Of a DNA stretch of 64,000 nt, positions 26,720 through 58,505 are shown piece by piece; position 1 is the first letter of the stretch; each line of letters opens with the position of its first letter. Below the pieces are notes generated by a model, which was given only the letters and a program-made list of their open reading frames with translations, made no database searches and was not told the origin of the DNA. Source of the DNA: a virus. The position numbers and the translations under genes are program-made. The stretch is from the IMG/VR virus record IMGVR_UViG_3300042691_037350, positions 58,475 to 122,474 of that record; one strand, 5' to 3'.

Positions 26720-27213
26720 TGTCTGACACTAATCCATATTGTAATTTAATAGACACTAATACTGTTTTTAATAAGAAAAAGGTATATTCTTGTACTTATT
26801 GTGGTATTAAAATTGGTTTAGATAATCCTGATACAAAAATGTTTTGTTTTAAAAAGATTCAAGATTTTTCTATGTCTATTAAAAAAATAACCAATCCTTT
26901 GGGTTCTGTGGATCCTATACATATAGGAGAAAACGAATCCATGCAAGAAGTTATTTTAGATAAGGTTATTAAAGATAATGAAGCTGAAGCTCAAATTAAA
27001 GCAAACGAAGGTAACCCACAAAATCTTTGTAACGATGAGCAAATAGAATCTAGATTAGCTATATGTAGAGGTTGTGAATTTTATAAAGATAATTCTTGTA
27101 TACTTTGTGGATGTCAAATTGTAAGAGAGGCTAATCATATGAATAAACTAGCCCACAAAGATCAAAAGTGTCCTGCGGATAAGTGGGGTCCTATCGTTGA
27201 CGAACAAAGCTAG
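26719..27213 (+). CDS. Small multi-Cys protein with a DUF6171-like C-terminal domain
   Basis: N-terminal CTYC, then RLAICRGC-x7-CILCGC...KCPADKW. TAATG-coupled to the giant Cys-rich gene. Confidence 0.6.
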   Translation: MSDTNPYCNLIDTNTVFNKKKVYSCTYCGIKIGLDNPDTKMFCFKKIQDFSMSIKKITNPLGSVDPIHIGENESMQEVILDKVIKDNEAEAQIKANEGNPQNLCNDEQIESRLAICRGCEFYKDNSCILCGCQIVREANHMNKLAHKDQKCPADKWGPIVDEQS

Positions 27214-28159
27214 TAATTGGTCTTACAGGATCACCGTAGTGAACCAATAGTGGCAAAGTTTCTGTCTTACCGTCCACACGAATAATTAGAGTACCCTTTA
27301 CTTGTTGAGCCCTAGACCAATTCATAAAAAAGTGTACTCCAACCACATATTCTGCAAATGGTGCATTTCCTGGTGCCCAAAAAATATTTTCTATAGGTCT
27401 AGGACTTAATAATCTTGGATGTGCATTCATATCTATATCTAATGCACCCCCACAAAACCCTACTCTGTTTGTCCAGTTAATATTAGATCCTATTGGTTTA
27501 ACTAGAACATGAAGATCAAGATCATCTATGGTGTCCCAAGATAAAGATATTTGAACATCTCCGGTTTTAGCACCATATTCTTTTAATCTTTTTTGTATCT
27601 CCCCAACCTTCATCTGCTCCGCAATATTAGATACAGATTGTTGGTCAAGTTCTCCTCTCCTAGATAACAACACTTGTGTATTAGTTCGTCCTGTATAAAC
27701 AACTTTTGGATCTGGCATTGGACTAGCGGTTTTGATCTCTTCTGTTAAAACATCCGCAGCAATATTATCTATAAAATCGGATGGTTTATCAAATCCAGTA
27801 TCAGGTACGGGTATATTTTCTATTTTTAGAGTATCTTCCATTAAAGACACCGCACTAATTCCAGCATCTATAGATGCCGCCTCCAACGTATCCTTAGATT
27901 CTTCCAAAGATACTATTTTTATAGGTGGTTCTTCTAGAGGCTCAGTTAAAGGTTCAACATTTTCTTCTACTGAAGCAAAGTTTAACTCTATAACTATTCT
28001 TTGTTTATCAACCACAACAGGAAATAGCATAGCCATAATTAAAAATATTATGGTGTGTACTATTAGGCTATGCCAGACACCAGATAAATATAAATAACCA
28101 ACTGTCTGTTCTATATTGTTTAGGATGGATTGTCGTTGTTTTTTTGCCATTTGTGCCAA
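27191..28159 (-). CDS. Membrane-anchored protein with a C-terminal YfaP/DUF2135-like domain
   Basis: N-terminal TM helix (SLIVHTIIFLIMAMLF), acidic Pro/Glu linker, then GDVQISLSWDTIDDLDLHV...GGALDIDMN...ENIFW. The start may be the second Met at 28150. Confidence 0.65.
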   Translation of the reverse strand: MAQMAKKQRQSILNNIEQTVGYLYLSGVWHSLIVHTIIFLIMAMLFPVVVDKQRIVIELNFASVEENVEPLTEPLEEPPIKIVSLEESKDTLEAASIDAGISAVSLMEDTLKIENIPVPDTGFDKPSDFIDNIAADVLTEEIKTASPMPDPKVVYTGRTNTQVLLSRRGELDQQSVSNIAEQMKVGEIQKRLKEYGAKTGDVQISLSWDTIDDLDLHVLVKPIGSNINWTNRVGFCGGALDIDMNAHPRLLSPRPIENIFWAPGNAPFAEYVVGVHFFMNWSRAQQVKGTLIIRVDGKTETLPLLVHYGDPVRPITSFVRQR

Positions 28160-28452
28160 CCGTTATGCGGTAACCAATTGTTGTTGTCATCTTTTCTTTT
28201 GGGGAAAAGAGTACCGCCCTTCTTATGTTGTCCGAAAGCTAGAATTGCTCCACAATCACTGCATCGCAACTCATAATAGTCATTTCCGTCTACGTTCCTG
28301 ACGATATATCTAATGTTTGTTTTACTACACAAACCACACTTTTCTTCTCCAAAAATTTCTTGAATTAACGCCAGTTCTTTGAAGACTTCTTTTTGTCCAG
28401 AACCTTCTAATTCAAATTCTAGTTTTGAGTTTGGTTTGTATCGTAGTTTCAT
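28120..28452 (-). CDS. Zinc-ribbon hypothetical protein
   Basis: CGLC...CSDC motifs. 110 aa, directly downstream of the annealing protein. Confidence 0.55.
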   Translation of the reverse strand: MKLRYKPNSKLEFELEGSGQKEVFKELALIQEIFGEEKCGLCSKTNIRYIVRNVDGNDYYELRCSDCGAILAFGQHKKGGTLFPKRKDDNNNWLPHNGWHKWQKNNDNPS

Positions 28453-28455
28453 GGT

Positions 28456-29166
28456 TTACTTTCTTTGTTTCCAGTTTGGTTGATAATTCAACAAATCTGG
28501 AGATATATTATCCACATTTTGTTGAAGTTTTGTTAGTTCTTTGATGAGCAACACAGCATCATCATGAGATATATTATCTATATAATCAGATGATATTGCA
28601 AGCGTGTCCATTAAACCAATTACATTAATATTCAACCTCTTAGACATTACATCTATAAAATTAATTTGATTATTGCTAATTTTAGAGACAGAATTTTCGT
28701 CTGGATTATCTTCTATATCTTTAGCAATTTCTTCTGCGGCAACCACCTTGCGAAGTCTTAATGCTCTACGCAAAGCTCTTCCTTCGGCCCTGGTTTCTGC
28801 TACCGCTACGGGATGATTGCGATATATCTTGTCACAATTACCCCAATAAACGTCCGCAGCGCCGTCTACAGACACTTTATTTAAATGTGGCGAGTCAGAT
28901 GACTCGTCGTTTAAATAATAGGATATGGTGTGAACAACCGTGGCCCTCTTTTCGTTATTTGGTTCTGGAGATTGAGCCACTTTTGTAATAGATTCAAGCA
29001 CCCTACAGTTTAAAGCTTTTTCGAAAATGCGTCTCAAACCATCCGTAGTAGGATTACCGGCTATTTTCTCATCTTCTGACAATAGGCTTAATACATAGTC
29101 CGTCCACTCTATGTCATGAATAGAAGGAACCTTTTCCTTTTTGTCTGATGATTTTTCCTTGCTCAT
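28456..29166 (-). CDS. Single-strand annealing protein (Rad52/Sak/ERF-like)
   Basis: GAAD...HPVAVAETRAEGRALRRAL helix motif and an ISNNQINFI C-terminal subdomain typical of phage annealing recombinases. Confidence 0.6.
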   Translation of the reverse strand: MSKEKSSDKKEKVPSIHDIEWTDYVLSLLSEDEKIAGNPTTDGLRRIFEKALNCRVLESITKVAQSPEPNNEKRATVVHTISYYLNDESSDSPHLNKVSVDGAADVYWGNCDKIYRNHPVAVAETRAEGRALRRALRLRKVVAAEEIAKDIEDNPDENSVSKISNNQINFIDVMSKRLNINVIGLMDTLAISSDYIDNISHDDAVLLIKELTKLQQNVDNISPDLLNYQPNWKQRK

Positions 29167-29957
29167 AGTGAATCCTCTATTTCTATAGTCTTTCCTTGTG
29201 TGCTTTTCATTTCTTCTATAGCGCGAATTAATTTATCATAAACGATAGTTGCCCTAGACTGAGAATAATCATGTAGTTGCTTTATTCTAATCAAAGACAA
29301 ACCCTTACCTATAATCAAACCAGTCTTTTTCTTATCATATTTTTGGTTTCTAGCCAAAACGTCTTCTCCCCAAACAGGAAGAAAATGAGAAGGACCATCA
29401 ACCTCTATTGCTATGTTCATTGTAGGCAGAAAGAGATCAATTTGCAACTTGGTATTTGATAGGATTTGCTCTTTATGAAACTCTACCATGAATCCGTGTG
29501 CTAATAATTCTTGTAATAGAAACTTTTCTAGCTTAGAACCTGATTTACTGCTTTTTCTCACAGCTTGATTAGCCGAAGCTATAATGTTTTCTTTTTGGTC
29601 TTCATCCATAGCTTGCCAAGCTTGTTTGCTTTTTTGTTTTCTTGCTTCTAGGGATTGTGCATCCATATTGTCCCAGGATTTCATGACAGATAATCCTATT
29701 TTACTTTTGGTAGAAGCGTCTCTAACGGAACCTTTAGTGGGATGTTTGTGTTTACCTGTTTTAAGAGCATTGGCTTGTGCTTCGCTTTTGTCTCTAATTT
29801 GTATACCTAGTTTTAGAGCATCTCTTCTAATTTTATTAGCATATGTATTATATTCGAGAGCTATATCAGCAAAACTCTTTTTATTAATCAAATATTGTTT
29901 ATTGATTAAGTCTATTTTTTGTTGATCAGATAAAGAACTATATTTTGGTGATGACAC
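29163..29957 (-). CDS. Putative endonuclease: HTH, NUMOD3-like segment and DUF559/Vsr-like PD-(D/E)XK domain
   Basis: SFADIALEYNTYANKIRR (HTH-like), STKSKIGLSVMKSW (NUMOD3-like), SKLE...IDLFLPTMNIAIEVDGPSH (nuclease core). Confidence 0.65.
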   Translation of the reverse strand: MSSPKYSSLSDQQKIDLINKQYLINKKSFADIALEYNTYANKIRRDALKLGIQIRDKSEAQANALKTGKHKHPTKGSVRDASTKSKIGLSVMKSWDNMDAQSLEARKQKSKQAWQAMDEDQKENIIASANQAVRKSSKSGSKLEKFLLQELLAHGFMVEFHKEQILSNTKLQIDLFLPTMNIAIEVDGPSHFLPVWGEDVLARNQKYDKKKTGLIIGKGLSLIRIKQLHDYSQSRATIVYDKLIRAIEEMKSTQGKTIEIEDSL

Positions 29958-30414
29958 TATGAAGCTCCTTTGCGTTGATATTATCTATTGTGGCAATTGG
30001 CCTAGACCAACATATATCGAGTAGGTCTGCTATAGATTCATCTTTAGCTATTAAATGTATATTATTGTTATCATAAATGCTTTTCCAAAACATAACCGGA
30101 ATAGAATGATCATTAGTCCAACTAAGGTCATCTATATACAAAATTTGGTTTTTTGGCGATGGGAAGGTTTTGGTGATCATTGCGCTTTTAATATCGAAAC
30201 AAATCAAGGTGCCACGAAAATATTTTGCTTGATTGATGTGTATAATAGGAAATTTTTTATTATTATCTGTTCTATCATATTGACTATTAAAAAGTATGAT
30301 GTTATCATATGGATTTTGATCCACCATATCATTTAATACGGTAATTATATTATTACATTTTTCAGAATGGTCGGCTCGAATTAAATAAAATGCTAGATCC
30401 ACTTTATGCCTCAA
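29938..30414 (-). CDS. Hypothetical protein, possible glycosyltransferase N-terminal Rossmann-like fragment
   Basis: Alpha/beta pattern, last gene of the GT cluster, no catalytic motif. Confidence 0.35.
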   Translation of the reverse strand: MRHKVDLAFYLIRADHSEKCNNIITVLNDMVDQNPYDNIILFNSQYDRTDNNKKFPIIHINQAKYFRGTLICFDIKSAMITKTFPSPKNQILYIDDLSWTNDHSIPVMFWKSIYDNNNIHLIAKDESIADLLDICWSRPIATIDNINAKELHSVITKI

Positions 30415-31150
30415 TAAATTTTAGTAGGTTATTATTAATGAAATTTTGGATGGAGTATTGTTCTATATTCTCTTTTGGTTCTATTAGTGTGTTGTTTTCT
30501 ATGTTTTTATGTATGTCTGGTTGCAGAGCTAGATTAGATATACCGCAAGCTTGAGCTTCTATCAGGTACGAGCCGGTTATATCCAATAGTTTATTGTATT
30601 GATTAAATAATAGGCTAATATCTGAACTATTGGCCACACCTATATTTTGAACATGTTTAAATTCTGGATTATTAATAGTTACTATTTTTAGTTTTGTATT
30701 AGGATACAAGATATTGTTTAATAACTTATGATTTATAGCGTTATCACTATGCAATATCGTTAAAATTTTATCATTTCTTTCGACATTAAGGTTATGAAAT
30801 ACTGTGGAATCGTATATATATTCGTATCCTAGGTTTATGTGACTGTTGATACTATTTTGTTTAATGGTTTTTATATTAAAATTGTTACAGTATTGAGCGA
30901 GATCCTTGTGTACGATGTCGCCCATAAAAATAATAATATTTACTTTATCTTTAAATGTATCTACAAATTGATGAAACTCTTGAGTATACTCATAGATTGG
31001 AAATATAATCGTGGAAGGGGTATGCTTATGATATATATCGAAAATATTTTCATGAAAAGAACCACTAATAAGATTAACGTGACTATTTAACTGTTGCAAT
31101 AATGGCAAATAAATTCTATGATTACAAATATGTGCTAATATTTTATTCAT
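30404..31150 (-). CDS. Degenerate GT-B-like protein
   Basis: LLFNQYNKLLD...SYLIEAQACGI resembles the GT4 donor-binding helix, but the first Glu of E-x7-E is missing. Confidence 0.45.
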   Translation of the reverse strand: MNKILAHICNHRIYLPLLQQLNSHVNLISGSFHENIFDIYHKHTPSTIIFPIYEYTQEFHQFVDTFKDKVNIIIFMGDIVHKDLAQYCNNFNIKTIKQNSINSHINLGYEYIYDSTVFHNLNVERNDKILTILHSDNAINHKLLNNILYPNTKLKIVTINNPEFKHVQNIGVANSSDISLLFNQYNKLLDITGSYLIEAQACGISNLALQPDIHKNIENNTLIEPKENIEQYSIQNFINNNLLKFIEA

Positions 31151-31836
31151 ACTGTTTCTTTAATTTGGTTAGAGTCTTTGATACTAGATATTTTAATAAC
31201 GCTGTTATTTTTAGTTTTTACTGGCTCATACAAAACACCAGATTCTATAGACTTATTGATTAGTTCAAACAAAAACATATTTCTCATAGAGTTATTGTAT
31301 ATAGTCTTATACTTAGTTAACGATGTGTTGTCAATATAAATTATTTCATTCCAGACATTGTCCGTGAGATTAAAAAACATGTGCTGCACTTTGGAATTAA
31401 CAATTGTAAAACCTATGGGGAAGTTAATGGTGTTGGTATTATTAAAATAATATAATTTTGGTGTGGATCTATTAGAAGTTAATAAATTATTTTTAATATC
31501 GTTGTTGAACAAGATTCCATTATTAATAATAATACATCCATCATATTTTTGCTCGTTATAGTTCTTTAAAATAAGCTCAAAAGCATATCCATGATTGGTT
31601 GATTCATATAAATCATTTTTTATGATATTAATGTTTGGATATTCTATTCTTTTTTTAATTTTATCTAAACCAAATCCCAAAATGACATATGTGTCTATAT
31701 TTTTATCTTTAATATTGGCTATTTGGCAATTAATTAACTCCTTAGATTTTTTGGATTTCAATAAACCTTTTGGGCCTATAGATTTCATACCCCGAGTAAT
31801 TTCGTACGATAGAATAAAACAAGCTAATTTTTTCAT
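31147..31836 (-). CDS. Divergent NTP-transferase (GlmU/LicC-like fold)
   Basis: ITRGMKSIGPKGLL, VILGFG, IIKNDLYESTN. The canonical LAAGxGxR loop is eroded (ILSYEITRGMK). Confidence 0.55.
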   Translation of the reverse strand: MKKLACFILSYEITRGMKSIGPKGLLKSKKSKELINCQIANIKDKNIDTYVILGFGLDKIKKRIEYPNINIIKNDLYESTNHGYAFELILKNYNEQKYDGCIIINNGILFNNDIKNNLLTSNRSTPKLYYFNNTNTINFPIGFTIVNSKVQHMFFNLTDNVWNEIIYIDNTSLTKYKTIYNNSMRNMFLFELINKSIESGVLYEPVKTKNNSVIKISSIKDSNQIKETV

Positions 31837-32243
31837 AATTTCTTTTGAAGCACAACTATAACATGAGTATTATCATTGTATGTTTTATGAATTTTAATAC
31901 CCTCCATCTGAGAAACCAGTTCAATCATATCAGAGTCTAAAAATAATGACTGGCACTGAGAAACTATACTGGATAAAAATTGACTGCCAGCGTTACCTTT
32001 AGCTACATCTTTACAGATCTTGGTAGCATTCAAAAATTTTAAGGTTAAAAATCCAGAATTAGATAATTTTTTACATAAATTAACTATATTAGTAATTCTA
32101 TCTTTGTATACATAATTATCTAGTGCTGTACAGATAATCTCAGAACAAGTACCGTTTATGACTTTATTTAGATCATCAATAGTCAGATTGTGATATCCAT
32201 CAAGATTATCTGATTCTGCTACAATAATATTTATTTTGTTCAT
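31833..32243 (-). CDS. Truncated or degenerate class I methyltransferase-like protein
   Basis: GTCSEIICTALD...LCKKLSNSGFLTL resembles the post-motif II region of class I methyltransferases. No GxG motif I. Confidence 0.35.
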   Translation of the reverse strand: MNKINIIVAESDNLDGYHNLTIDDLNKVINGTCSEIICTALDNYVYKDRITNIVNLCKKLSNSGFLTLKFLNATKICKDVAKGNAGSQFLSSIVSQCQSLFLDSDMIELVSQMEGIKIHKTYNDNTHVIVVLQKKL

Positions 32244-33154
32244 ATAATATATGCCTCATTATTAGCTTTATTTATTAGATTGATAGTATTTTGTTTGAAT
32301 GTTTCAAAAGGAAAATGTGATTCAAAATAATTTTTGTATTCCACCAAAGAGGATTCTAATGCTTGTTTTATACTAGTTATTAAATCCTGAACGGTTCTAG
32401 CCGTATATATATTGGGTACGCTAGCATAGTTATTCATAATCATTGGGGTGGCATATGTGACTCCTTTGCATCCACAAGCAATAGCAGTCAATAAATTAAC
32501 AATATTATGATCTCCCAGGTCAACACACACAGCATATTTGTTAAATAGTTCCCTAAGTATATCTACATCAAAATGCAGTTCTGTTAAAATATCTACTTGT
32601 ATATTATGACTATGTAAAAATTGTGCTAAAGGTTCTATATTAGGAGATTGCTCTAGATTAAGTAGTAGCACTCTATTGTCTCTTACGTTTTGTTCTTGAT
32701 AAAATTTATCTAGCGGTATACCATAATTATATACAAGCCTATTGTTTAATCGCCAAGATTCTGCTACATCATTAGCAAAAAATACTTTCATCTCTCTTGC
32801 TAAATTTTGATCTAGCAAGACCATATCTTCTTTTTTGATTTGTTGAGGCTTATATGAATGAGTAAAAATTATACTATTAAGATGCATTGCTGCAAATTTT
32901 TTCTGTGTAGAATACCCAATAATATTATTAGTCATACCAACATTATAATTGAATAAATCAGACTGTGACCCTTCTAAGAGTGTGAGATGAGAGTTTTTAA
33001 GGCCCAAAAAGTTATATCCTTTGGAGCTAAATAAATTTATCTCACATTCTGACAAAAGCACATCAAATAAATTTCTTTGTGGCTCATATAAAATATTAAT
33101 GGGCTGATTATTAAATTTGTTTAAGATATTTCCAGTGATGGTGCTTAGATACAT
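32240..33154 (-). CDS. Degenerate GT-B (GT4-like) protein
   Basis: YNYGIPLDKF and LFNKYAVCVD...NLLTAIACGCKGV. Both Glu residues of E-x7-E are absent. Confidence 0.5.
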   Translation of the reverse strand: MYLSTITGNILNKFNNQPINILYEPQRNLFDVLLSECEINLFSSKGYNFLGLKNSHLTLLEGSQSDLFNYNVGMTNNIIGYSTQKKFAAMHLNSIIFTHSYKPQQIKKEDMVLLDQNLAREMKVFFANDVAESWRLNNRLVYNYGIPLDKFYQEQNVRDNRVLLLNLEQSPNIEPLAQFLHSHNIQVDILTELHFDVDILRELFNKYAVCVDLGDHNIVNLLTAIACGCKGVTYATPMIMNNYASVPNIYTARTVQDLITSIKQALESSLVEYKNYFESHFPFETFKQNTINLINKANNEAYII

Positions 33155-34269
33155 AGTTTAGAACCTATACTTTCATAAGAAAAATTATTTAAACAAGAAA
33201 TACCGTTCTCTTGTTTAGCTATGAGTTGAGGGTCTTTTTTACAATGCATATTATATACTGATCTCATTTTATCTATCAGATCATACATATCTATTTTATA
33301 CCAATATTCATCAGCGTTATACAGATCAAAATCTTTTGAAAGAGTTCTATGCTCAAGAATAACTGGAGTTTTATGACTTTTCACTAAGAAGCCATTGTGC
33401 TCATTAATATAGTCTTTCATTCCTGTATTTTGGTTGACTATGGGAGTTTTACCTAGCACTAATGCTTCTGCGGCTGGTCTACAAAAGGCTTCACCATATG
33501 AAGGAGCCACAAAACAATCACAAGAATTATGTAGTCCGATAATATCTTGATATGACAATTGATTGGTTATAATAATTTCTTTTTTATATTTTTTAGAAAT
33601 ATTTAATTTATTTTTTAATGCTTCTATTTCTTCTTCTAATTTTTTAGATGTTTCATTTGGATGAACACCATTTTTGCTGGTTTTGATTATAAGACACACT
33701 GGTTCGGAGTAATCAAAAGCTAAATTAAAAGCCGTGACCAGATCTAGAATATTTTTTCTAAAGTTATGCTCTCCTATAAAATAGAATTTGAACATATTAT
33801 CTAATATAGGATTTAATTGTAGTTTATAGTTTCTATTTTGCTCGATAAAAACTGTATCTAGAGGTTGTGATATTGTTTTTACTGTAGTGGTGACACCTGA
33901 TTTTTTTAAACACTGTTCTTCTATTTTAGAAGGGACCCAAATCTCGTCCATTCTATTAATATTGGCTATACAATACGACTCTTTAATATGATTTGTTTCT
34001 AATACAAACAACCCAATATTTTTGGCATAAGATCTATTGAGAAATAAACAGTGCGGTAGTGTTTTTTGTATTACTACATCATAATTATCATATCTTGTAT
34101 TTTCATAGCCTAAAATATCTGGTTCATTAAAATATGGATCCGGCGTTGCAAGATAGACGGGTCTTGTTGTGATATTTTTGTGTTGAGAAGCCAGTGCTCT
34201 TATATAAGATCTGGTGGCTAATCCCCAACCATCATTTTGACGATATGGACCTACAAAGAGGGTATTCAT
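33145..34269 (-). CDS. Glycosyltransferase family 4
   Basis: GWGLATRSY, DEIWVPS, FIGEHNFRKNI, CDCFVAPSYGEAFCRPAAEALVLGKTPI (E-x7-E intact). Confidence 0.85.
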   Translation of the reverse strand: MNTLFVGPYRQNDGWGLATRSYIRALASQHKNITTRPVYLATPDPYFNEPDILGYENTRYDNYDVVIQKTLPHCLFLNRSYAKNIGLFVLETNHIKESYCIANINRMDEIWVPSKIEEQCLKKSGVTTTVKTISQPLDTVFIEQNRNYKLQLNPILDNMFKFYFIGEHNFRKNILDLVTAFNLAFDYSEPVCLIIKTSKNGVHPNETSKKLEEEIEALKNKLNISKKYKKEIIITNQLSYQDIIGLHNSCDCFVAPSYGEAFCRPAAEALVLGKTPIVNQNTGMKDYINEHNGFLVKSHKTPVILEHRTLSKDFDLYNADEYWYKIDMYDLIDKMRSVYNMHCKKDPQLIAKQENGISCLNNFSYESIGSKLCI

Positions 34270-35936
34270 TTAATACTATCCTTCATGTGAGCATAATTAA
34301 TATAATCTTCTGGATTTAATTTATCTAAATTATTTTTAGCCGTTTGGGCAAGATTGTGATTTCTAATAATCGTATTAAGTATATCCAGAGCTTTTTGTGT
34401 GTTGTATCCTTCTGTTGATAGTCCTTGGTTGATAAATCCATAATCTATATCCCTAATCATATTTAACATAATCATAGAAGATCCTACCTGATGATTTGGA
34501 AGATGTTTCGATACCAAGAATGTGATTAAGTCATATGGTGTGCTAATATTCTCAGGCACATCAGATATTTCTTGCATCAGCGGGAGTATCTGATCCCATT
34601 GTCCTTGTAATCCAGTTAATTGAATACTATCAAAATATTTTTCCCATTTTTTGGCTATATCATCCCAATTATAGTGTTTTTCTGTTAGTTTCCTGGTTTC
34701 GAATCTTTTTTGTTCCTTGAGAGGTTCTGGCATCTTATAAAAAGACTCTAGAATATGTATTAAATTTTCATTATCTGGAAATACTCTAATCGCTCTAGTC
34801 TCTAATTCTTTAAAATATTGACCAACTTTAATTGGATACCCATTAACCTTTCTAACAACGTCACTCATAGCGCTATAATCGATAGAAGATATTGGTACAC
34901 CACACGCAGATGCTTCTACTTGTGGCATACCGAATCCTTCACATATTGCATACTGAACATAGATATCAAAAAGATTCATTACCGCCGCAAGATTTTGTGA
35001 GGATATCCCATTACTAACATTAGGCATACTACATGATTTCTGACCACATCTAGTACAAACAGCGACTGGATGCTGAAACAGAGAAGGGTAAAAATGTCCA
35101 CAGCTTTTACATGAGTATGTGAATAGTACTCTGTTTCCTATTTTGTATTCCTTTAAGAGTTGTGGAATATCCCACCCAGCATCTGGATAACTAGTGTGTA
35201 AATACAGATAAAGGTTTTTGCCTAATTCATGATTGTTTGTGCGTTCGCATTTTTCTAATAGCTTTTTAATAGCATAGAATAAATCTGGAATTAATTTACG
35301 TTTTTGATTGCGCATAACAGAACCGACAATAAATAAATCTTCGCTAAGACCAAAAGCCTTGCGAAGTCCTTTGCGATCAGTTGCCGGTACAAATGTTTGT
35401 AAATCTACGCCTGGAGATGTTGTGTCTATGTAATTTATTTTATTATTGCTTTGTTTAGCAATGGTGTCTCTGCCGAAATCGGAGTATGTAAATACAGCGT
35501 CAGCATGCAAAAATGTATCTATCCATTCTTCTTGTTGTGGTTCAGAATCGACAGTGGGCATCAAAACCCAGTGGAAAAATGGTCGTAAAGGAGAGAACTG
35601 TTGGTACGAATTCATCCAGTAATCTCTAACATCGAATACCACATCCGGCTTAAAGTCCAGCAAAACCCTTTCAAATCTCCATCTACCGAACTGATTTTCT
35701 GATGATGATTGATATTCAGGATATCTTGGATCTTTTTCATCTACGGCATTCGCATAATATTTCCAGTCAATACTAACATCTTTTGGATCATTAGTTTTAC
35801 CATAACACGCTAATTCAGCGATATCATATTTACCTGTAGCATGTAATCTTTTTAAGATCTCTTTGGCATAAGTTCCAAAGCCTGAACTTAAGAAACTAGC
35901 TTCTGACACCATCAAAATTTTAAGTTTTTTATTCAT
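34266..35936 (-). CDS. Glycosyltransferase family 4 with a zinc-ribbon insert
   Basis: KILMVSEASFLSSGFG, PGVDLQTF, VMRNQKRK, EGFGMPQVEASACGVP. CKSC...CTRC insert at about 35043-35111. Confidence 0.88.
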   Translation of the reverse strand: MNKKLKILMVSEASFLSSGFGTYAKEILKRLHATGKYDIAELACYGKTNDPKDVSIDWKYYANAVDEKDPRYPEYQSSSENQFGRWRFERVLLDFKPDVVFDVRDYWMNSYQQFSPLRPFFHWVLMPTVDSEPQQEEWIDTFLHADAVFTYSDFGRDTIAKQSNNKINYIDTTSPGVDLQTFVPATDRKGLRKAFGLSEDLFIVGSVMRNQKRKLIPDLFYAIKKLLEKCERTNNHELGKNLYLYLHTSYPDAGWDIPQLLKEYKIGNRVLFTYSCKSCGHFYPSLFQHPVAVCTRCGQKSCSMPNVSNGISSQNLAAVMNLFDIYVQYAICEGFGMPQVEASACGVPISSIDYSAMSDVVRKVNGYPIKVGQYFKELETRAIRVFPDNENLIHILESFYKMPEPLKEQKRFETRKLTEKHYNWDDIAKKWEKYFDSIQLTGLQGQWDQILPLMQEISDVPENISTPYDLITFLVSKHLPNHQVGSSMIMLNMIRDIDYGFINQGLSTEGYNTQKALDILNTIIRNHNLAQTAKNNLDKLNPEDYINYAHMKDSIK

Positions 35937-35959: not shown

Positions 35960-35991
35960 AAAATAAAAATAGGGGGTTATGCACCCCCTAT
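35960..35991 (-). terminator. Rho-independent terminator downstream of ssb
   Basis: 9-bp stem ATAGGGGGT / ACCCCCTAT (35969-35991) with a 5-nt loop, followed on the - strand by TTTTATTTTCTTTTC. Confidence 0.8.
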
Positions 35992-36006
35992 CTTTAGATT
36001 AACCTA

Positions 36007-36416: not shown

Positions 36417-36444
36417 ATTATAAAAACCGTGGGTGTGGTGTCAA
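36417..36444 (-). promoter_or_regulatory. Sigma70-type promoter for ssb
   Basis: TTGACA-N16-TATAAT on the - strand. The -35 box contains the TGA stop of the dnaE C-half. Confidence 0.8.
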
Positions 36445-38066
36445 GATTTTGCGATGTAAGCCTTTTCTACTATCAATGAATCACCGGCTTTCGATCTGTT
36501 GCCCTTGACTATAATAACATTGCTACCAAACAATAGGTTTCTATAACTTCTGTATTGATCTGGAAAGAAGACCACAGAATCCAAAACACCCGACCCGTCA
36601 GTTAATGTAACAAATGCCATTTCAAGTCCAGGATTTTTCCCAGTTTTAGTTTTTGTAACGCTAATATTATCAACTTCACCACATAAAATAATATTGTCTT
36701 TAGATAGACTATTTTTAAATTCTTTGCATGTCATATTAGTCATACTAATATCATACATATCCACTTTAGAACATGTAATGCTACACCCTAGGGTTTCTTC
36801 TTCTGTATCAGCAATCCACTCTGGATTGTCTTCTAGAGCATATGGCGGTTTATGTAATGTATTCAACAAGTTTTGTACTACTAGTAACCTATTTTTATTT
36901 AGCTTACCAACCCTTATTAAACCAGTAAGAGCGTCATTAAGATTATTATAATTATATATATTAGTTAAGATATGAGATATTTCTTTTTTGGTCAGTTCAT
37001 TAATAAGACTTAACTCAAATAACATAGCGTTTCTGGTTTTCTTTAAAAAAGACAACGCTCCGCTTTGTATAAGAGATTTGGCTGCTGTAGAATTAATATC
37101 TGTTAGGATCATAAAGGCCAACTGTATCCAGTTCACGGCATCAAGATTGATTTGCTTATTTTGTATAAGACTAACTAATTTATCATAAACAGCATTGCCA
37201 AAACCTTTAATATCGGTCAGTCCAAAATAAATTTGATTATTTTTGAGTATAAATAATTTATTTAGATGCCTAATATCTGGTGTGCTTACTGTAATATCCA
37301 TTTCACTAGCATTTTGAACCAATTCTTTGATTTCTGATTTAGGATCAATTTTATCTTTAGCAAATCTTAGGTATGATGCAAAAAATATTTTTGGGAAGTG
37401 AGCTTTTGTATATGCAGATAAGTATGCATTAATAGCATAGCTGACAGCATGAGATTTATTAAAAGAATATCTTTGAGATTTCTCGATCCAGCTAAAAATT
37501 TGATCTGCCTCGTCTTCCGTGACCAAATTAAGGTTTTTAGCTCCAAATAAAAATTTGGATTTGACTTTTGCCATTTCTTCTGGTTTTTTCTTACCAATAG
37601 CTTTTCTTAACATGTCTGCTTCTTGCAAATTAAAACCAGCAATTACTTTAGCAATTTCCATTGCCTGTTCTTGATAAATCATTTCTCCATAGGTAGTCTT
37701 TAAAATTGGTTCTAGAGACGGGTGGAAGTGATCAATAGTTTCTTGTCCATTTTTTTTATCTATATAATGATTAGTAACACTTTTACCATCTCTAATAGCC
37801 TCTAAGCATCCGGGTCTAAGAATACTAATCAATGCAGATAGTTCTTCTATATTAGATGGTTTGAGTTTTTTGGCTATAGATCTGCCAAGTCTTGATTCTA
37901 ATTGAAAACACCCTTTGGTATTGCCATCAGAGATCAAGTCCCAAGTTTTATAGCATTCCAAATTGATCTTTTCGATTTTAGGATCAAAAGATAGTTTCAT
38001 ATCATCTCCGTCTCCAGAGATAATATCAAATGAACAGCCACAAGGATACTGAAATTTCCTAGACAT
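36441..38066 (-). CDS. dnaE: DNA polymerase III alpha, C-terminal half (fingers, HhH, OB fold)
   Basis: GCFQLES, ILRPG, YQEQAM, ADMLRKAIGKKK, YSFNKSHAVSYA, FGLTDIKGFG, MAFVTLTD. Confidence 0.93.
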   Translation of the reverse strand: MSRKFQYPCGCSFDIISGDGDDMKLSFDPKIEKINLECYKTWDLISDGNTKGCFQLESRLGRSIAKKLKPSNIEELSALISILRPGCLEAIRDGKSVTNHYIDKKNGQETIDHFHPSLEPILKTTYGEMIYQEQAMEIAKVIAGFNLQEADMLRKAIGKKKPEEMAKVKSKFLFGAKNLNLVTEDEADQIFSWIEKSQRYSFNKSHAVSYAINAYLSAYTKAHFPKIFFASYLRFAKDKIDPKSEIKELVQNASEMDITVSTPDIRHLNKLFILKNNQIYFGLTDIKGFGNAVYDKLVSLIQNKQINLDAVNWIQLAFMILTDINSTAAKSLIQSGALSFLKKTRNAMLFELSLINELTKKEISHILTNIYNYNNLNDALTGLIRVGKLNKNRLLVVQNLLNTLHKPPYALEDNPEWIADTEEETLGCSITCSKVDMYDISMTNMTCKEFKNSLSKDNIILCGEVDNISVTKTKTGKNPGLEMAFVTLTDGSGVLDSVVFFPDQYRSYRNLLFGSNVIIVKGNRSKAGDSLIVEKAYIAKS

Positions 38067-38754
38067 TAGTAGTAAAAGAATCCTTAAACTTAATTTTTTG
38101 AGCCAGATTTCTATGTAATTTTAAAAATCTAATCAATATTTCTGCACAATCCTTTACGTCTTTTAGGGCGTCGTGCGCGCCTTCTTTTGATAGGCCAACA
38201 TAATCCCTAACAGAGTCCAGAGTATAGCTTTTAAGGTCATTATTGTATTCGAACCAATAAAAAATCAAATTCATTATATCTACAACATCTCTAGGGAAAA
38301 ATACGCCTGATGTACCTTCTTTATTTGTGTTGCCATACTTTACGCTTAGCCTGTCTATAATTTTAAGGTCAAACCTATTAATATTATATCCTGCTGCTAT
38401 TGGTGCGGTAAATTGACTTTTTTTAGATGATCTAGTATGATACATATCTAAATAATTAACAAATAATTTCCACGAGTGTTCTTGAGATGGATAGTTTTTC
38501 CACTGTGATAAAACCTCATCCTTAGAACAACTTTTTACTCTAGCGTGAAAATCTAGAATATCTGTTGTATAAACATAATTATCATCACTTGCCAATACTT
38601 CTGGTTTAAAAAATATATTAAATTCAGATTTGGGTATAATTTCTAACTTTATAGGATCTATCATAAGAGCAGCGATTTGTACAGGACTACACTGCTTTGG
38701 GTCAGATCCATCTGTTTCAAAATCAAAAACACAAATTTTGTTATAATTAATCAT
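38059..38754 (-). CDS. DEDDh 3'-5' exonuclease (DnaQ/epsilon-like)
   Basis: ExoI FDFETDG, ExoII GYNINRFD, ExoIII HDALKD. Confidence 0.88.
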   Translation of the reverse strand: MINYNKICVFDFETDGSDPKQCSPVQIAALMIDPIKLEIIPKSEFNIFFKPEVLASDDNYVYTTDILDFHARVKSCSKDEVLSQWKNYPSQEHSWKLFVNYLDMYHTRSSKKSQFTAPIAAGYNINRFDLKIIDRLSVKYGNTNKEGTSGVFFPRDVVDIMNLIFYWFEYNNDLKSYTLDSVRDYVGLSKEGAHDALKDVKDCAEILIRFLKLHRNLAQKIKFKDSFTTNV

Positions 38755-38929
38755 TAATTTCTACTTCTGTAATAGGTATAACTTGGATCTTAGTATTGGT
38801 GTCATTTACTTGTGAAGCATTATTCACATGACAGCAACTTACTCTTTCATCTGGAATTTTAACATACTCGATTCCATTAAGTGTAAATTGTTGACCTATT
38901 TGTACATCAATAAACTTTTTTAAAGACAT
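38747..38929 (-). CDS. Small beta-rich hypothetical protein (60 aa)
   Basis: Fills the gap between dnaE-N and the exonuclease. AGGAG lies upstream in the end of dnaE-N. Contains a CCH motif. Confidence 0.6.
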   Translation of the reverse strand: MSLKKFIDVQIGQQFTLNGIEYVKIPDERVSCCHVNNASQVNDTNTKIQVIPITEVEIND

Positions 38930-38933
38930 AGTA

Positions 38934-40805
38934 TTATTTATCTCCTAAAATATCTTGAATAGTCATAATTTTGTCTAACATTGCAACACCAAGTATATCA
39001 AACTTAATTATACCAATAGATTCTAAATCTTGCATCTCCATACCAGCGATTAATTGCTTATTTTTGGAATCATAAACCATTGGACATGCTTCGTTCAAAG
39101 GCAATGCGCTGATTGCGATACCCGCTGCGTGTTTTGACTGATTGGATTTCGTACCCTCTAATCTAATAGCCTGCTCAAAGCGTTTGGCAAGTGGTCCTTG
39201 TAGTTCATTTTTTTCATCGATAAAGCACCATTCTTTTAGCTTATCGGGATTATTCTCTAGGGCCCATCTAATAATAGAAGCTTCTCCTGTTTCTTCTTTC
39301 ATTTCTTGAAGATCATCTGCTATTTTAGCTTCGTCTGGAATATTTTTTGTAATCTTATTCATTTCATCGAAAGAAATATTTCCATAAACTCTTAATACAT
39401 CCTTTAAAGCACCTCGGCCTTTAATAGTATTGAAAGTAATCATTTGCGACACTTTATCGTGACCATATTTAGTCTTGATATAGTCGATAATAATCTCTCT
39501 TTTATTAATTGGTACGTCAACATCTATATCTGGCATGGAAATATGATCTTTAGAATTACGTCCAGCATTATAAAATCTATCAAACATTAGATTATATTTC
39601 ATCGGATCGATACTGGTAATTCCAATCAAATAAGACACTAGGCATCCGGCAGCACTACCTCTACCTGGACCGGGAAGCCAACTGTTCTGTCTAACATAAT
39701 TGACAATATCTTGTACGATCAAGAAATAACTAGAAAGACCAGCACCCTGCAAAACTTCTAATTCATATTTAATTCTATTTACGTATTGCTGTTGATCATC
39801 CTTATTAATACTATTAGCTATTTTGTCTCTCCATCCTTCTCTACATAATTGTCTAAGATATTCGTCTGGATTATAGCCGGTAGGGCATGTAAAAGGAGGA
39901 AGTCTTGGTTTACTTAAAACATTATATTCTTCACAAAGATCAGCTACCAAATTAGTATTTTCTATTTCTGCTTCTGTATGCAAGCTATTCATTTCCTCTT
40001 GAGAAAGTAAATGAAAATTATCAGAAGTAAAAAAGCATGAGAGAGGAACTTCTTCATCATGACTTATTTTTCTACTAATTTCAGGAAAAGTAGTTTTTAA
40101 ATTATTACATAATAGGATTCTTTGATCATTAGCGTCTTCTTTTCGACAATAATGAGCATCTGGGGTACAAACAACTTTTGTGTTACTAAGTTTACCCAAT
40201 TCTCTAATAATATCAGTTAAATCTTTTTGAATAGGAGTATTATTCATATCCATTAATTGTGCTTCCAAAAAGAAATTATCTTTACCAAATATATCTTTTA
40301 AAGAACCAATTTCTTTCAGACCTACTTTTTGCCAATCCTTAATTATAGCATTATTTTGTATTAGTTTATCAGCAAGCAGTGACCCAAGATGGCCGCATAT
40401 ACCTATGATATTACCATCACAAAACTTGGAAAGACTCTTGAGATCAAGTCTGGGTTTATGATAATAAAAGTCTGGCCTATTAGACTCGGAAACCAATTGA
40501 ATAAGCTTATTCCACCCATTCAAATTTTTTGCTAATACCAAAAAGTGAGTAAGATCCTTATTGGTTTTATCTTGTATAACTGGATCTTTATCACACAAAT
40601 AAATCTCACAACCAAGAATGGGCTTAATTCCCTTGGACTTCATTTCTGAATAAAATTTAACAGCCCCGGCTATATTGCCGTGATCTGTTAAGGCGCAAGC
40701 AGTAGCGCCTATTTCTTGACATCGTTCAGAAATTTGAGACGGTTTAGATAATCCATCCAACAAACTAAACATCGAGTGACAATGGAGAGGTATATATTTT
40801 TTCAT
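38934..40805 (-). CDS. dnaE: DNA polymerase III alpha, N-terminal half (PHP, palm, thumb)
   Basis: HCHSMFSLLDG, TDHGN, GCE, DAHY, GPGRGSAAG, PDIDVD, HAAG, KFDILG. Confidence 0.95.
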   Translation of the reverse strand: MKKYIPLHCHSMFSLLDGLSKPSQISERCQEIGATACALTDHGNIAGAVKFYSEMKSKGIKPILGCEIYLCDKDPVIQDKTNKDLTHFLVLAKNLNGWNKLIQLVSESNRPDFYYHKPRLDLKSLSKFCDGNIIGICGHLGSLLADKLIQNNAIIKDWQKVGLKEIGSLKDIFGKDNFFLEAQLMDMNNTPIQKDLTDIIRELGKLSNTKVVCTPDAHYCRKEDANDQRILLCNNLKTTFPEISRKISHDEEVPLSCFFTSDNFHLLSQEEMNSLHTEAEIENTNLVADLCEEYNVLSKPRLPPFTCPTGYNPDEYLRQLCREGWRDKIANSINKDDQQQYVNRIKYELEVLQGAGLSSYFLIVQDIVNYVRQNSWLPGPGRGSAAGCLVSYLIGITSIDPMKYNLMFDRFYNAGRNSKDHISMPDIDVDVPINKREIIIDYIKTKYGHDKVSQMITFNTIKGRGALKDVLRVYGNISFDEMNKITKNIPDEAKIADDLQEMKEETGEASIIRWALENNPDKLKEWCFIDEKNELQGPLAKRFEQAIRLEGTKSNQSKHAAGIAISALPLNEACPMVYDSKNKQLIAGMEMQDLESIGIIKFDILGVAMLDKIMTIQDILGDK

Positions 40806-45662: not shown

Positions 45663-46146
45663 GTTTTAAAGCCTTTATTTTTTGTATAGAAATTAATATG
45701 TCAGAAAGATTTTTGACGCCGTTAGCTAAATACGATAGTCTATCGCTTCTTTGTTTAGCGTATTTTTTTATTTTATTCAGAGATTGGGCTCTGTCGTTGT
45801 GTTTAATAGCTTGGTATGCTTTTTCAACGTAGCCGTAGCCTTTATAATTATTAATTTCATCAGCTATCACTTCTTTGATCGTCTCTTCTGCCCAATTATA
45901 TCTGGCTAGTTCTCTATTTATAGTTCTTTGTATATGAAAAGAAAATTGACCCAATCTATACGATATTTGAGCACAGTCTTCTGGAGTTAATTTTTCCAAT
46001 TCATCTCTGTTCATAGTTAAGTAATTATTTAATTCTGTTTCCGAAAGAGTTGTAGGATTATAGTTCGGTAAACCTATGCCATTTTCGTATTGGTCTAATA
46101 AAGAATCCCAGTCGTTCAGTTCTTCTTTTGTATTTTTAGTTGTCAT
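45655..46146 (-). CDS. Helical hypothetical protein (possible UvsY-like recombination mediator)
   Basis: Predicted all-alpha coiled coil of UvsY-like size, two genes downstream of recA. Function is inference only. Confidence 0.35.
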   Translation of the reverse strand: MTTKNTKEELNDWDSLLDQYENGIGLPNYNPTTLSETELNNYLTMNRDELEKLTPEDCAQISYRLGQFSFHIQRTINRELARYNWAEETIKEVIADEINNYKGYGYVEKAYQAIKHNDRAQSLNKIKKYAKQRSDRLSYLANGVKNLSDILISIQKIKALKHG

Positions 46147-46546
46147 AAGTTATTCTATTTTTCCATTGTTCAATATTTTCATCAAATGGTAGTTCTATTA
46201 AATTGATATTATTAAGTTCACACCACTCTTTTTTTTCTTTGTCTCTTTTTTGATGTTTAATAAATCCCAATAATGTATGATGATAAAATCTATTGAATGC
46301 ATAGTGTTGTTCACCATGTACCTCTATACATTTTTTATTTAGGGGCAAATAAAAGTCTAAATATAAAACTTCTCCACGCCTGACATAGATCGGAATTTCT
46401 TCTAAAACTTGTAGTGTTGGAAAACACTCATGTATTAAGTCTCTGGCTTTAAGATGTAGACTAGATTTTTTAGTACATGAACCGTGTGCTATGTTTCCAA
46501 TAAGCTGCCAATTATATAGATTACCATCCAAATCTTTTACTTGCAT
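46136..46546 (-). CDS. DUF559/Vsr-like PD-(D/E)XK endonuclease
   Basis: LYLDFYLP...CIEVHGEQHY...RDKEKKEWCELNNINLI. Confidence 0.75.
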   Translation of the reverse strand: MQVKDLDGNLYNWQLIGNIAHGSCTKKSSLHLKARDLIHECFPTLQVLEEIPIYVRRGEVLYLDFYLPLNKKCIEVHGEQHYAFNRFYHHTLLGFIKHQKRDKEKKEWCELNNINLIELPFDENIEQWKNRITYDN

Positions 46547-53009: not shown

Positions 53010-53708
53010 TTATAGTTGGTTAATATCAAAATTTAAATTAGGAAAATCTGACCTAAGAGAACGATTGACTACATTATCAAGTTCAACCGAAATAATTTTT
53101 GTAGGCCGATTTAAAAAATTTCTTATAATATTTGCTAAGTCATATTTGGAATATGTGGTGTTACCAAACAAATAATATAATCCATTACTATTGTTTTGAA
53201 TAAGTTTTTTTGTTTCATGAGCGACTTGTTTCGCTGTGAGTCCATTCCAGTAATAGTTACTATAACCTGTAAATTCTTCTACGCAAGAAAGTTTTTGTAC
53301 AAGCTGACTTCTTATATCTAAAAATGATGTTCGTATAACTAGAATATTTGATTCTCTTAATAAGTATTTGGAGGCTATGCTTTTACTTAGTCCATACTCA
53401 TCTGTGGGATCATGAGGATCTTTTTTTGTATATTGTAGACCAATGGTTTTATCCCCAGAAAAGACAGCATCTGTGCAAAAATGTATTAATTGTTTGGTGT
53501 TTTCTTTCAAAAAACAAGGCAAGTCAATATTAATTGTTTTATTTCCTTGTTTGTCTACTATACAATTAATGATTGTACGATACTGTTTATTGATAATAAG
53601 ATTGACAAATTCTTCTGATGGAAATCTGAATAATGTTGTATCGCAATCAATGATAGACTGTATTCTTTTACCCAAAATACCATTATGGCCTAATAGTAAT
53701 GGTTTCAT
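53010..53708 (-). CDS. NDP-4-keto-6-deoxyhexose reductase (RmlD-like SDR)
   Basis: LLGHNGILG, HFCTDAVFSG, YGLSK, IRTS. Confidence 0.75.
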   Translation of the reverse strand: MKPLLLGHNGILGKRIQSIIDCDTTLFRFPSEEFVNLIINKQYRTIINCIVDKQGNKTINIDLPCFLKENTKQLIHFCTDAVFSGDKTIGLQYTKKDPHDPTDEYGLSKSIASKYLLRESNILVIRTSFLDIRSQLVQKLSCVEEFTGYSNYYWNGLTAKQVAHETKKLIQNNSNGLYYLFGNTTYSKYDLANIIRNFLNRPTKIISVELDNVVNRSLRSDFPNLNFDINQL

Positions 53709-55839: not shown

Positions 55840-55873
55840 ATAATCATTAACAACTAATATAATGATTAGCTAG

Positions 55874-58047: not shown

Positions 58048-58505
58048 AAAGCTCTTTCTATCCAGGATAGGTCTGGTTGTAGGTAAGTAATCTGCATACC
58101 GCTCATTTTGATAAAAACATTAAATCTTTCTTGGTTTTCTGTGTCAAATAGATGTGTTCCGTGTCCTTCGGTCATATATACTTTTGTCACGCCTTCTTGC
58201 CACAGAGCCATTATGCAATCATTACAGCACTGTCCGGTTACATAAGCTATTCCATTGTCTGGTCTAATAACACAATTTGATAAAGCATTTCTTTCTGCAT
58301 GAATCATCCAAGGATACTTTTCTGGCCGAGTATTTGGTAATAATTTATCATCTAGTCCTTTGGGGAATCCATTATATCCAACACCAAGAATTCTGTGTTG
58401 AGTATCTGTGATAATACATCCGTGCTGAGTTTGTATATCATGGCTACGCAAAGATACTATGCGAGCTAACCCCAGAAAATATTCATGCCAAGATGGTCTA
58501 TTCAT
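58044..58505 (-). CDS. dCMP deaminase
   Basis: RPSWHEYF, GYNGFP, HAERNAL, CCNDC. Confidence 0.9.
   Translation of the reverse strand: MNRPSWHEYFLGLARIVSLRSHDIQTQHGCIITDTQHRILGVGYNGFPKGLDDKLLPNTRPEKYPWMIHAERNALSNCVIRPDNGIAYVTGQCCNDCIMALWQEGVTKVYMTEGHGTHLFDTENQERFNVFIKMSGMQITYLQPDLSWIERAL

Follow-up and report, generated by a model that had tools for sequence, protein, structure and literature searches.

Glycosylation by phages is known for DNA, in T-even and related phages, and for virions, in mycobacteriophages and chloroviruses. The enzymes in these systems act as separate catalysts. Here we describe a glycosyltransferase (GT) module in which, by contrast, dead enzyme relatives seem to be obligatory parts of a machine. 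It occurs in IMG/VR virus record IMGVR_UViG_3300042691_037350, a single viral contig of 122,474 bp (CheckV completeness 82%), within the right-hand 64 kb of that contig (positions 58,475 to 122,474). We call this 64,000-nucleotide stretch the window, and positions refer to it unless stated otherwise. The module consists of seven consecutive open reading frames (ORFs), named g1 to g7 in order of transcription:

g1: 34266-35936, minus strand, 556 amino acids (aa), GT4 glycosyltransferase
g2: 33145-34269, minus strand, 374 aa, GT4
g3: 32240-33154, minus strand, 304 aa, GT-B-like, Glyco_trans_1_2 type
g4: 31833-32243, minus strand, 136 aa, class-I methyltransferase fold
g5: 31147-31836, minus strand, 229 aa, LicC/GlmU-type nucleotidyltransferase fold
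g6: 30404-31150, minus strand, 248 aa, compact two-domain GT-B
g7: 29938-30414, minus strand, 158 aa as listed, free-standing GT-B N-terminal Rossmann domain

These genes coincide exactly with a cluster at 29938-35936 that had been proposed in an initial annotation made from the sequence alone. All frames are open, and neighbouring genes overlap by 4, 10, 4, 4, 4 and 11 nucleotides (nt).

Comparison with described systems

Phage DNA sugar clusters have a similar make-up. They include the alpha/beta-GT genes of T4 and the arabosyl-5-hydroxycytosine (5hoC) clusters of the "Afh" type in RB69, DLP3 and HY126. In the available parts of the sources (PMC13326640; Pyle et al., bioRxiv 10.1101/2023.12.21.572611), multiple BshA/SPS/PimA-like GT-Bs are combined with a LicC/MurU-like nucleotidyltransferase among the replication and nucleotide genes of lytic phages, with a deoxynucleoside monophosphate (dNMP) kinase nearby. 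The new locus resembles these clusters in both composition and setting. Unlike them, however, it is accompanied by no ThyA-like hydroxylase or hydroxymethylase, TET-type oxygenase, C5 methylase or MazG-type dCTPase in the record or in complete near relatives, it has no sugar-activation kinase, phosphatase or isomerase, and it contains decayed subunits and a half GT-B.

In the GtfA/GtfB O-GlcNAc transferase of serine-rich-repeat (SRR) adhesins, which has a cytoplasmic protein acceptor, an inactive partner serves assembly and acceptor handling. The g1-g7 module would likewise combine an active GT4 with an inactive partner of GT-B fold. By contrast, it has seven components rather than two, its predicted binding partner g7 is half a GT-B that would sit on g6 and not on the main GT4, and a sequence relationship was not demonstrated. 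The analogy to GtfA/GtfB drawn in the initial annotation is apt as a way of working, and membership in this system is at most putative. No SRR adhesin or accessory Sec genes turned up in the annotated parts of the genome, in which no dedicated search for them was made. In Alg13/Alg14 and in bacterial split GT-Bs, the N-domain of a GT-B enzyme is a separate small protein that needs a partner. The N-domain g7 is also encoded separately. However, g6 already has two domains, so that g7 is an extra N-domain, and g7 has no membrane anchor.

In virion glycosylation by mycobacteriophages and chloroviruses, phage GTs and methyltransferase-type genes are encoded away from the structural module, as they are here, and methylated deoxy-sugar chemistry is available in this genome also. 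The precedent for GTs combined with methyltransferases is mycobacteriophage virion glycosylation (Freeman et al. 2023, as cited in PMC12619734). We found no sequence relationship to these systems, and pseudo-enzyme subunits were not found described for them. A further partial resemblance is to orf9-orf14 of Tetrasphaera phage TJE1, which in the GenBank annotation encode a nucleotidyl transferase, a methyltransferase, an epimerase and a GT of phrog_2170. This GT is 22.7% identical to g1 over 78% of its length, and TJE1 also lacks a ThyA homologue, but it is a small siphovirus with one GT only. With its four core GT groups, the "moraphage" lineage was also considered, and we ruled it out, as the portion of its description that was available gives it PolB and T4-like structural genes, whereas the polymerase here is a split DnaE type.

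We found no description in the literature of this module or of pseudo-enzyme GT subunits in phages, although the supplementary tables of Pyle et al. and PMC13326640, which lie outside the text covered, may list contigs of the lineage. A blastn search with the cluster against 50,697 phage records gave zero matches, and thus a cultured member was not found there.

Conservation and selection in related viruses

Two scans of viral contigs yielded 67 related loci, whose g1 is 38-91% identical to that of the window. L001 and L004 come from one contig, as do L002 and L019, and several further loci are identical pairs. Approximately 30 loci with g1 at least 55% identical constitute the near clade, which is that of the window, and loci with g1 at 38-47% identity constitute a distant, sister clade. 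All seven genes are open and syntenic in the roughly 30 near loci, and the decayed genes are open and syntenic even in contigs whose g1 has 38-47% identity. Genes g1, g5, g6 and g7 are present in 58 of the 58 loci with enough downstream sequence; g4 was found in 58 loci as well. The minimal sets, in L046 and L052, comprise g1, a gene of an additional family E, g5, g6 and g7, and lack g2, g3 and g4.

Compared with the closest relative (L002), the ratio of nonsynonymous to synonymous substitution rates (dN/dS) is 0.016 for g1 and 0.07-0.12 for g2-g7, values that are rough given that dS is saturated. The initial annotation had suggested dN/dS and synteny as a check on the cluster; dN proved to be far below dS for all seven genes, and their order is kept. 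Identity to L001 is 77% for g1 and 42-62% for g3-g7. The conservation of g1 (77-91% identity to L001/L002) is comparable to that of the DNA polymerase (77-93%). The seven genes are thus under purifying selection despite the loss of catalytic signatures described below, and their arrangement is not due to chance.

In the distant clade, two extra genes lie between g4 and g5. The extra family E (L034:12143-12991 and relatives, alignment A8) has 261-298 aa and four invariant N-terminal cysteines, and occurs in 31 loci, mostly of the distant clade (L028 and L064 are exceptions). No consistent Pfam family was found among the 23 members scanned, and a profile search of PDB returned nothing usable for it. 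A companion family, A9 (L034:12967-13473), has about 130-170 aa, occurs in 16 loci and does not match any known family.

Of the 24 sequencing runs listed, 20 contain near-identical DNA; these come from 16 studies that mostly carry freshwater metagenome labels, and one of the runs is possibly the source sample. All 24 consist of assembled contigs, which carry no base-level signal, and no RNA data set is among them. The g1-g7 module is a core gene set of a large uncultured, mainly freshwater lineage.

The GT4 pair

Both g1 (35.3 bits, E = 1.1e-8) and g2 (54.4 bits, E = 1.4e-14) score above the cut-off of 26.4 bits for Pfam family PF00534, and both belong to phrog_2170 (E = 7.9e-25 for g1), a family that PHROGs places in the category "moron, auxiliary metabolic gene and host takeover". 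The glutamates of the E-x7-E motif are present in both translations (E333/E341 in g1, E260/E268 in g2), in agreement with the initial annotation of two intact GT4s. Residues 276-297 of g1 form a Cys4 insert (CxxC...CxxC), in which C276, C279, C294 and C297 do not vary across 48 unique sequences. At its C-terminus the protein is extended by about 115 aa that are less conserved. Judged by these residues, g1 is the apparent invariant catalytic subunit, and its Cys4 insert is zinc-ribbon-like.

Reduced and decayed folds in g3 to g7

As single sequences, g3-g7 have no significant match in Pfam or PHROGs, and relatives were collected for this reason. In g3, Thr223 replaces the glutamate of the EA..G donor-binding helix. 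The g3 family profile matches GT-B C-domains in PDB weakly (9v0l, E = 0.0015). Pfam is silent on g3 of the window, whereas its positional orthologue at L034:10756-11742 scores 36.9 bits for PF13524 (cut-off 25). In the window's clade, g3 is a probable pseudo-enzyme.

The ESM Atlas model of g4 (pTM 0.81) resembles Methyltransf_11/23 clusters at TM 0.82-0.87, a lead-grade match as it uses the Atlas's own fold. Motif I, the GxGxG-like motif that binds S-adenosylmethionine (SAM), occurs within the first 60 residues of none of 45 unique orthologues. The g4 profile gave one weak methyltransferase match (3hnr, E = 0.46), which we set aside in favour of the Atlas fold match. Its leucine-rich-repeat matches were rejected as spurious, with no significant single stretch.

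The g5 profile matches PDB entry 1jyk, the CTP:phosphocholine cytidylyltransferase LicC of pneumococcus, over its full length (positions 1-226, E = 1.6e-12), as well as GlmU N-domains (E = 7.2e-8). Sugar- and alcohol-phosphate nucleotidyltransferases grip the NTP with a G-x-G-(T/K)-R loop, which is also visible in the alignment of g5 with 1jyk. The glycine loop of g5 in the window is S10-Y-E-I-T-R-G16 (followed by M), as opposed to the canonical AAGxG(K/R)R, and K23 of the P-K pair is retained.

The fold of g6 has the two Rossmann-like domains and closing C-terminal helix of a GT-B, with the residues D190-x7-E198. By contrast, g7 does not have both Rossmann domains, and is a single N-domain with its own closing helix. 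Its true start is likely a GTG at 30402, giving 154 aa, on which the orthologue alignment, the Atlas record and the sequence agree. Searching PDB sequences with the g6 and g7 profiles yielded no usable match. Foldseek alone found zero matches for g7 at E ≤ 0.001, whereas the wider VIA-align search did find matches. High-ranking structural neighbours include WaaG, PimA, BshA, MshA and SenB, and the GtfA structure 4pqg is among the fold matches of g7. Using hhalign, we did not find a relation of g7 to g6 or g3. The g7 family is large: of its 1177 representative clusters at E ≤ 0.001, 851 also pass E ≤ 1e-10. The best 150 listed have 90-171 aa, with no fused form among them, and a search aimed at longer or fused g7 likewise found none, which is weak evidence.

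The folds and residue losses bear out the initial annotation of g3 and g6 as degenerate GT-B-like proteins, of g5 as a nucleotidyltransferase lacking the LAAG loop (it is of LicC/GlmU type, and both loop glycines are gone) and of g4 as a methyltransferase-like fragment without motif I. The "Rossmann-like fragment" g7 can be refined to a GT-B N-domain. The GC content dips to 27.7-28.9% at positions 30001-34000, which correspond to g3-g7, compared with 33-35% in the flanking replication genes.

Complementary signature loss in the two clades

The signature residues are distributed as follows, where counts refer to unique sequences unless loci are stated:

g1, E[GA]F[GC]x4E: 64/64 sequences in both clades (the window and 63 loci, some of them the same contigs)
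g5, loop P-A-A-G-x-G-K/R-R-M-K-S-Y-G-P-K: canonical in 27 distant loci, degenerate in 31 near sequences (30 loci and the window)
g2, glutamate pair of E-x7-E: kept in 17/44, all in the near clade; the other 27 lack the pair, and the distant clade has lost it
g3, glutamate of the EA..G helix: near clade 0/22, distant clade 10/20
g6, glutamate of the EA..CG helix: near clade 22/22, distant clade at most 1/22 (the alignment is less certain)

In the degenerate g5 loop, S/P-Y/P-E-I-T-K-G-M-K-S, both glycines are gone and a glycine stands at the position of the arginine. The downstream lysine is kept in only 12 of the 31 degenerate sequences. The g5 of L052 has neither loop pattern, and g2 of L032 has E-x7-D.

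Thus, the window's clade has lost the signatures of g3 and g5, the sister clade has lost those of g2 and g6, and all subunits are retained. This result is new. Given that the silenced subsets differ by clade, the silenced proteins are hard to explain unless they are needed for something beyond catalysis. The clade-specific silencing amounts to a natural experiment that separates parts used for chemistry from parts used for assembly.

Predicted binding of g7 to g6

We made one complex prediction, with g5, g6 and g7 as chains, g7 scored as the partner and alignments made for this analysis. The ipSAE of g7 against g5 and g6 is 0.80 (0.80, 0.81 and 0.77 in the individual runs), and the best of three controls reached 0.00. 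In calibration, solved complexes reach this mark in 58 of 80 cases and mismatched pairs in 2 of 110. Contacts agree by at least 55% between runs, and the pLDDT of the partner is at least 81. The score is lost once g6 is replaced, and so the predicted partner of g7 is g6 rather than g5.

The predicted interface comprises g6 residues 128, 149, 153-157, 159, 161-174, 177 and 180-181, and g7 residues 97, 99-100, 102-108, 110-111, 130-131 and 133-136. It holds W99, the only invariant residue of g7, along with the near-invariant N160, N169 and G171 of g6. We therefore predict that g7 docks on g6. The prediction of pairwise complexes had been proposed in the initial annotation; it was run for the g5/g6/g7 set, where it predicts g6-g7 binding.

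Transcription and genomic surroundings

The genome has two strand blocks. The plus-strand block has the terminase, fibres and giant ORFs, and the minus-strand block, from position 27191 to the end of the window, contains the replication and nucleotide genes. The latter encode DnaB helicase, primase, RecA, a PD-(D/E)XK nuclease, dNMP kinase, single-stranded DNA-binding protein (SSB), a class II-like ribonucleotide reductase, PhoH, an HNH protein and deoxycytidine monophosphate (dCMP) deaminase. The following features adjoin g1-g7 or lie further along this block:

35964-35996, minus strand: GC-rich terminator-like hairpin between ssb and g1, with a 14-bp stem, 5 G-C pairs and a T-run
29163-29957, minus strand: hnh264, a helix-turn-helix (HTH) protein with a Vsr-like nuclease domain (phrog_559, E = 7.5e-14), overlapping g7 by 20 nt, in 57 loci
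28456-29166, minus strand: p236, in 54 loci; a PDB profile search gave nothing usable
28120-28452, minus strand: p110, in 54 loci
27191-28159, minus strand: p322, last of the string, with a hydrophobic N-terminal segment near residue 32 (KD19 maximum 2.73), in 24 loci
53010-58047, minus strand: sugar-tailoring cluster, from Pfam matches

As stated in the initial annotation, ssb lies upstream of the module. An annealing protein was expected downstream, but this was not confirmed: the next gene is hnh264, followed by three genes without a family. Starting with g1, eleven genes (g1-g7, hnh264, p236, p110 and p322) form a gap-free string. A sigma-70-like promoter (36444-36417, 12/12 consensus) lies upstream of ssb. 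The hairpin at the junction of ssb and g1 occurs in the window and in 7 of the 8 relatives folded (L023 has none); its position is kept and its sequence differs. This suggests that the hairpin sets the glycosylation string apart from ssb, either by read-through or as a separate transcription unit, and ssb looks like a small transcription unit of its own.

The hnh264 protein, a core gene product whose HTH is N-terminal, weakly resembles the nuclease domain of AbaSI (profile E = 0.041), with which it shares the motif D..IEVDG..H. A second protein with the phrog_559 nuclease domain and this motif is encoded at 46136-46546. The hydrophobic segment of p322 may be a membrane anchor. In g1-g7 we found no membrane-like segment (KD19 windows ≤1.35), and the seven proteins are accordingly expected to be soluble.

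Several other features of the genome were observed. Two ORFs, of 623 and 541 aa, encode the split DnaE-type (Pol III alpha) polymerase at 36441-40805 on the minus strand. Its halves are separated by an RNase T-like exonuclease gene (38059-38754) and a 60-aa ORF, and related loci have the same layout. The plus-strand block contains giant ORFs of 3363, 3436, 1424, 1316 and 2655 aa, and is presumed to be structural (window positions 1-26719, genome C1:32759-65686). In the replication block, a 990-aa ORF at 58548-61520 has no Pfam or PHROG match, and a PHROGs scan of 10 unassigned ORFs of this block gave a single match, to one nuclease domain.

Sugar supply and base-modification genes

The sugar-tailoring cluster at 53010-58047 encodes an RmlD-like reductase (E = 2.7e-12), a Polysacc_synt_2 4,6-dehydratase (E = 2.3e-46), a sugar C-methyltransferase (Methyltransf_13/14, E = 1.5e-34), a TylF-type O-methyltransferase (E = 1.8e-33) and a 492-aa GT2 (E = 6.4e-13). 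It is followed by the dCMP deaminase gene at 58044-58505. Such methylated deoxy sugars are usually found in glycans on proteins and surfaces. Among 5 complete relatives, only G001 has the dehydratase (81% identity), and so the cluster appears lineage-specific and outside the core. It is possibly an accessory feeder of donors.

We searched five records for enzymes that could modify bases, namely the window's record and four relatives (three complete near ones and one distant one). Thymidylate synthase (PF00303) gave no match in the window's record, with its completeness of 82%, or in any of the three complete near relatives. The sole match is in the distant relative; only thymidylate synthases are among its best 60 PDB matches listed, and this protein looks like an ordinary thymidylate synthase. 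Tet_JBP (PF12851) was found in 0 of 5 records, in a search whose positive control was silent. The five records likewise contain no match to C5 DNA methylase (PF00145), TGT/DpdA, 2OG-FeII_Oxy_3 (PF13640) or MazG. For the families searched, the observation in the initial annotation that the window has no base-hydroxylating enzyme holds for the whole record and for the three complete near relatives, with the silent control applying to TET/JBP.

In the publications covered, among them PMC13326640 and Pyle et al. (bioRxiv 10.1101/2023.12.21.572611), all sugar modifications of phage DNA start from 5-hydroxymethylcytosine (5hmC), 5-hydroxymethyluracil (5hmU) or 5hoC. Such bases arise through the action of a thymidylate-synthase homologue, or of a methylase together with a TET-type oxygenase.

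A 318-aa collagen-repeat fibre with a phage tail-tip domain is encoded outside the window (genome C1:26370-27326, L073:6370-7326). It has approximately 80 G-X-Y triplets and is rich in Ser/Thr (GITGSTGSTGSQGVQ...). A second, weaker collagen-repeat ORF occurs at C1:42853-43995.

Function of the module

The explanation that we prefer, with a probability of roughly 0.4 when its protein acceptor is included, is that g1-g7 would together form a single glycosyltransferase machine, soluble and cytoplasmic, in a widespread lineage of uncultured freshwater phages. Catalysis would centre on g1 as the fixed component, and around it would be arranged the paralogue-like GT-Bs g2, g3 and g6, with the half GT-B g7 docked on g6. 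The LicC-type g5 and g4, in which the loss of motif I would exclude the usual SAM binding, would complete the machine. In the window's clade, g1, g2 and g6, which keep GT-B signature residues, would be accompanied by g3, g4 and g5 as a non-catalytic scaffold or for acceptor handling. In the sister clade, these roles would be partly swapped, with g5 canonical, g3 often canonical, and g2 and g6 decayed. The machine would build a short glycan from nucleotide sugars onto a macromolecule of phage origin produced in the cytoplasm. Host UDP-sugars would be the donors and, in this phage and its nearest relative, perhaps also methylated 6-deoxy sugars from the genes at 53010-58047. The most likely acceptor would be a virion protein or other phage protein. 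We consider the part of this explanation that is independent of the acceptor to be highly probable; a multi-subunit glycosylation complex with pseudo-enzyme subunits, as already suggested in the initial annotation, is supported by the purifying selection, the clade-swapped signature loss and the predicted g6-g7 binding. The existence of a single joint complex, as well as its acceptor, is what we infer from these data.

It could be argued that there is no joint machine, and that independent enzymes and decaying duplicates merely lie side by side, with the decayed ones on their way out. The lost signature residues of g3, g4 and g5, the faster evolution of g3-g7 relative to g1, their lower GC content and the absence of g2, g3 and g4 from the minimal sets would fit such decay. 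However, we regard it as improbable, and the least likely of the explanations that we weighed: the decayed genes stay open and syntenic down to the most diverged g1 at low dN/dS, the g7 family alone has hundreds of representative clusters at the stricter threshold, decay is complementary between the clades instead of progressive, and g7 is predicted to bind g6. Another view is that the module remodels host glycoconjugates, i.e., lipid-linked intermediates of lipopolysaccharide, capsule or teichoic acid at the inner face of the membrane (e.g., to block superinfection), or that it synthesizes a small glycoside. GT4 and Glyco_trans_1_2 relatives mostly use lipid-linked or small acceptors, and WaaG, PimA, BshA, MshA and SenB are among the structural neighbours. 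Enzymes of the LicC type supply surface decoration with activated phosphocholine or sugar phosphates. The putatively membrane-anchored p322 ends the gene string, and the PHROGs category of g1 includes host takeover. By contrast, host-surface morons are usually variable, whereas this module is a family-wide core whose g1 is as conserved as the DNA polymerase. Moreover, none of the 11 genes of the string is annotated by Pfam or PHROGs as an initiating polyprenyl-phosphate transferase, flippase, polymerase or ligase, g1-g7 have no membrane segment, and p322 occurs in just 24 loci. This function therefore seems unlikely to us.

The strongest competitor to a protein acceptor is DNA, in that the same multi-GT machine would glycosylate replicated phage DNA as a protection against host nucleases, on an acceptor group installed by a yet-unrecognised enzyme. 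The module lies directly after ssb in the replication block, in a gap-free string that includes the gene for a Vsr-like nuclease domain, and dNMP kinase and dCMP deaminase are encoded on the same strand. A core module combined with variable sugar-tailoring genes would suit an arms race with restriction, the Cys4 insert of g1 is invariant, and many ORFs, one of them of 990 aa, have no family. Yet the six families searched, which are tied to known base-modification pathways, gave no match in the window's record, the sugar modifications described in the sources covered start from 5hmC, 5hmU or 5hoC, and the one thymidylate synthase that was found, in a distant relative, appears ordinary. DNA was the favoured target in the initial annotation; with these families absent, it is somewhat disfavoured, and we consider it possible but less likely than protein. 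A particular version, namely a hetero-oligomeric DNA glycosyltransferase that does without known base hydroxylases, using a new acceptor chemistry or an unrecognised base-activating enzyme while the pseudo-enzymes and the zinc-ribbon of g1 hold the DNA, is more doubtful still. Should it hold, a lineage seen in many freshwater metagenomes would carry DNA hypermodification of a new class. We slightly favour a phage protein over DNA because the base-modification families searched gave no match in the window's record, genes for methylated deoxy sugars are present and virion glycosylation has a precedent in mycobacteriophages.

Several points weigh against a protein-glycosylating machine. No acceptor protein was identified. 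The collagen-repeat fibre was considered as a universal acceptor and rejected; of 5 complete relatives, 3 have such repeats and both distant ones lack them, and so the fibre is not the core acceptor. The module adjoins ssb and a nuclease-domain gene inside the replication and nucleotide strand block, and known DNA-glycosylating genes sit in such blocks (PMC13326640; Pyle et al., bioRxiv 10.1101/2023.12.21.572611, in the parts available). Its BshA/SPS-like GT-Bs and LicC/MurU-like nucleotidyltransferase also mirror the DNA arabinosylation clusters of RB69 and DLP3, as far as these are described there. The loss of signature residues is not proof of a loss of activity, as GT-B chemistry varies. 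The g6-g7 prediction covers one pair and not the whole assembly; its three chains and purpose-made alignments depart from the set-up of the calibration, and the placement of an N-domain on a GT-B C-domain may echo the way these domains pack within solved GT-B enzymes. Overall, we rank a phage protein first as the acceptor, then DNA, followed at some distance by a host glycoconjugate or small molecule.

Implications

The module is a real and strongly conserved feature that is new to the literature, and represents phage glycosylation built from active and decayed enzyme paralogues. It raises the question of what is glycosylated from within a replication block that has no known route to a base hydroxyl. 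Either outcome would be useful: the module may represent widespread virion glycosylation in aquatic phages, or a new route to sugar-modified DNA.

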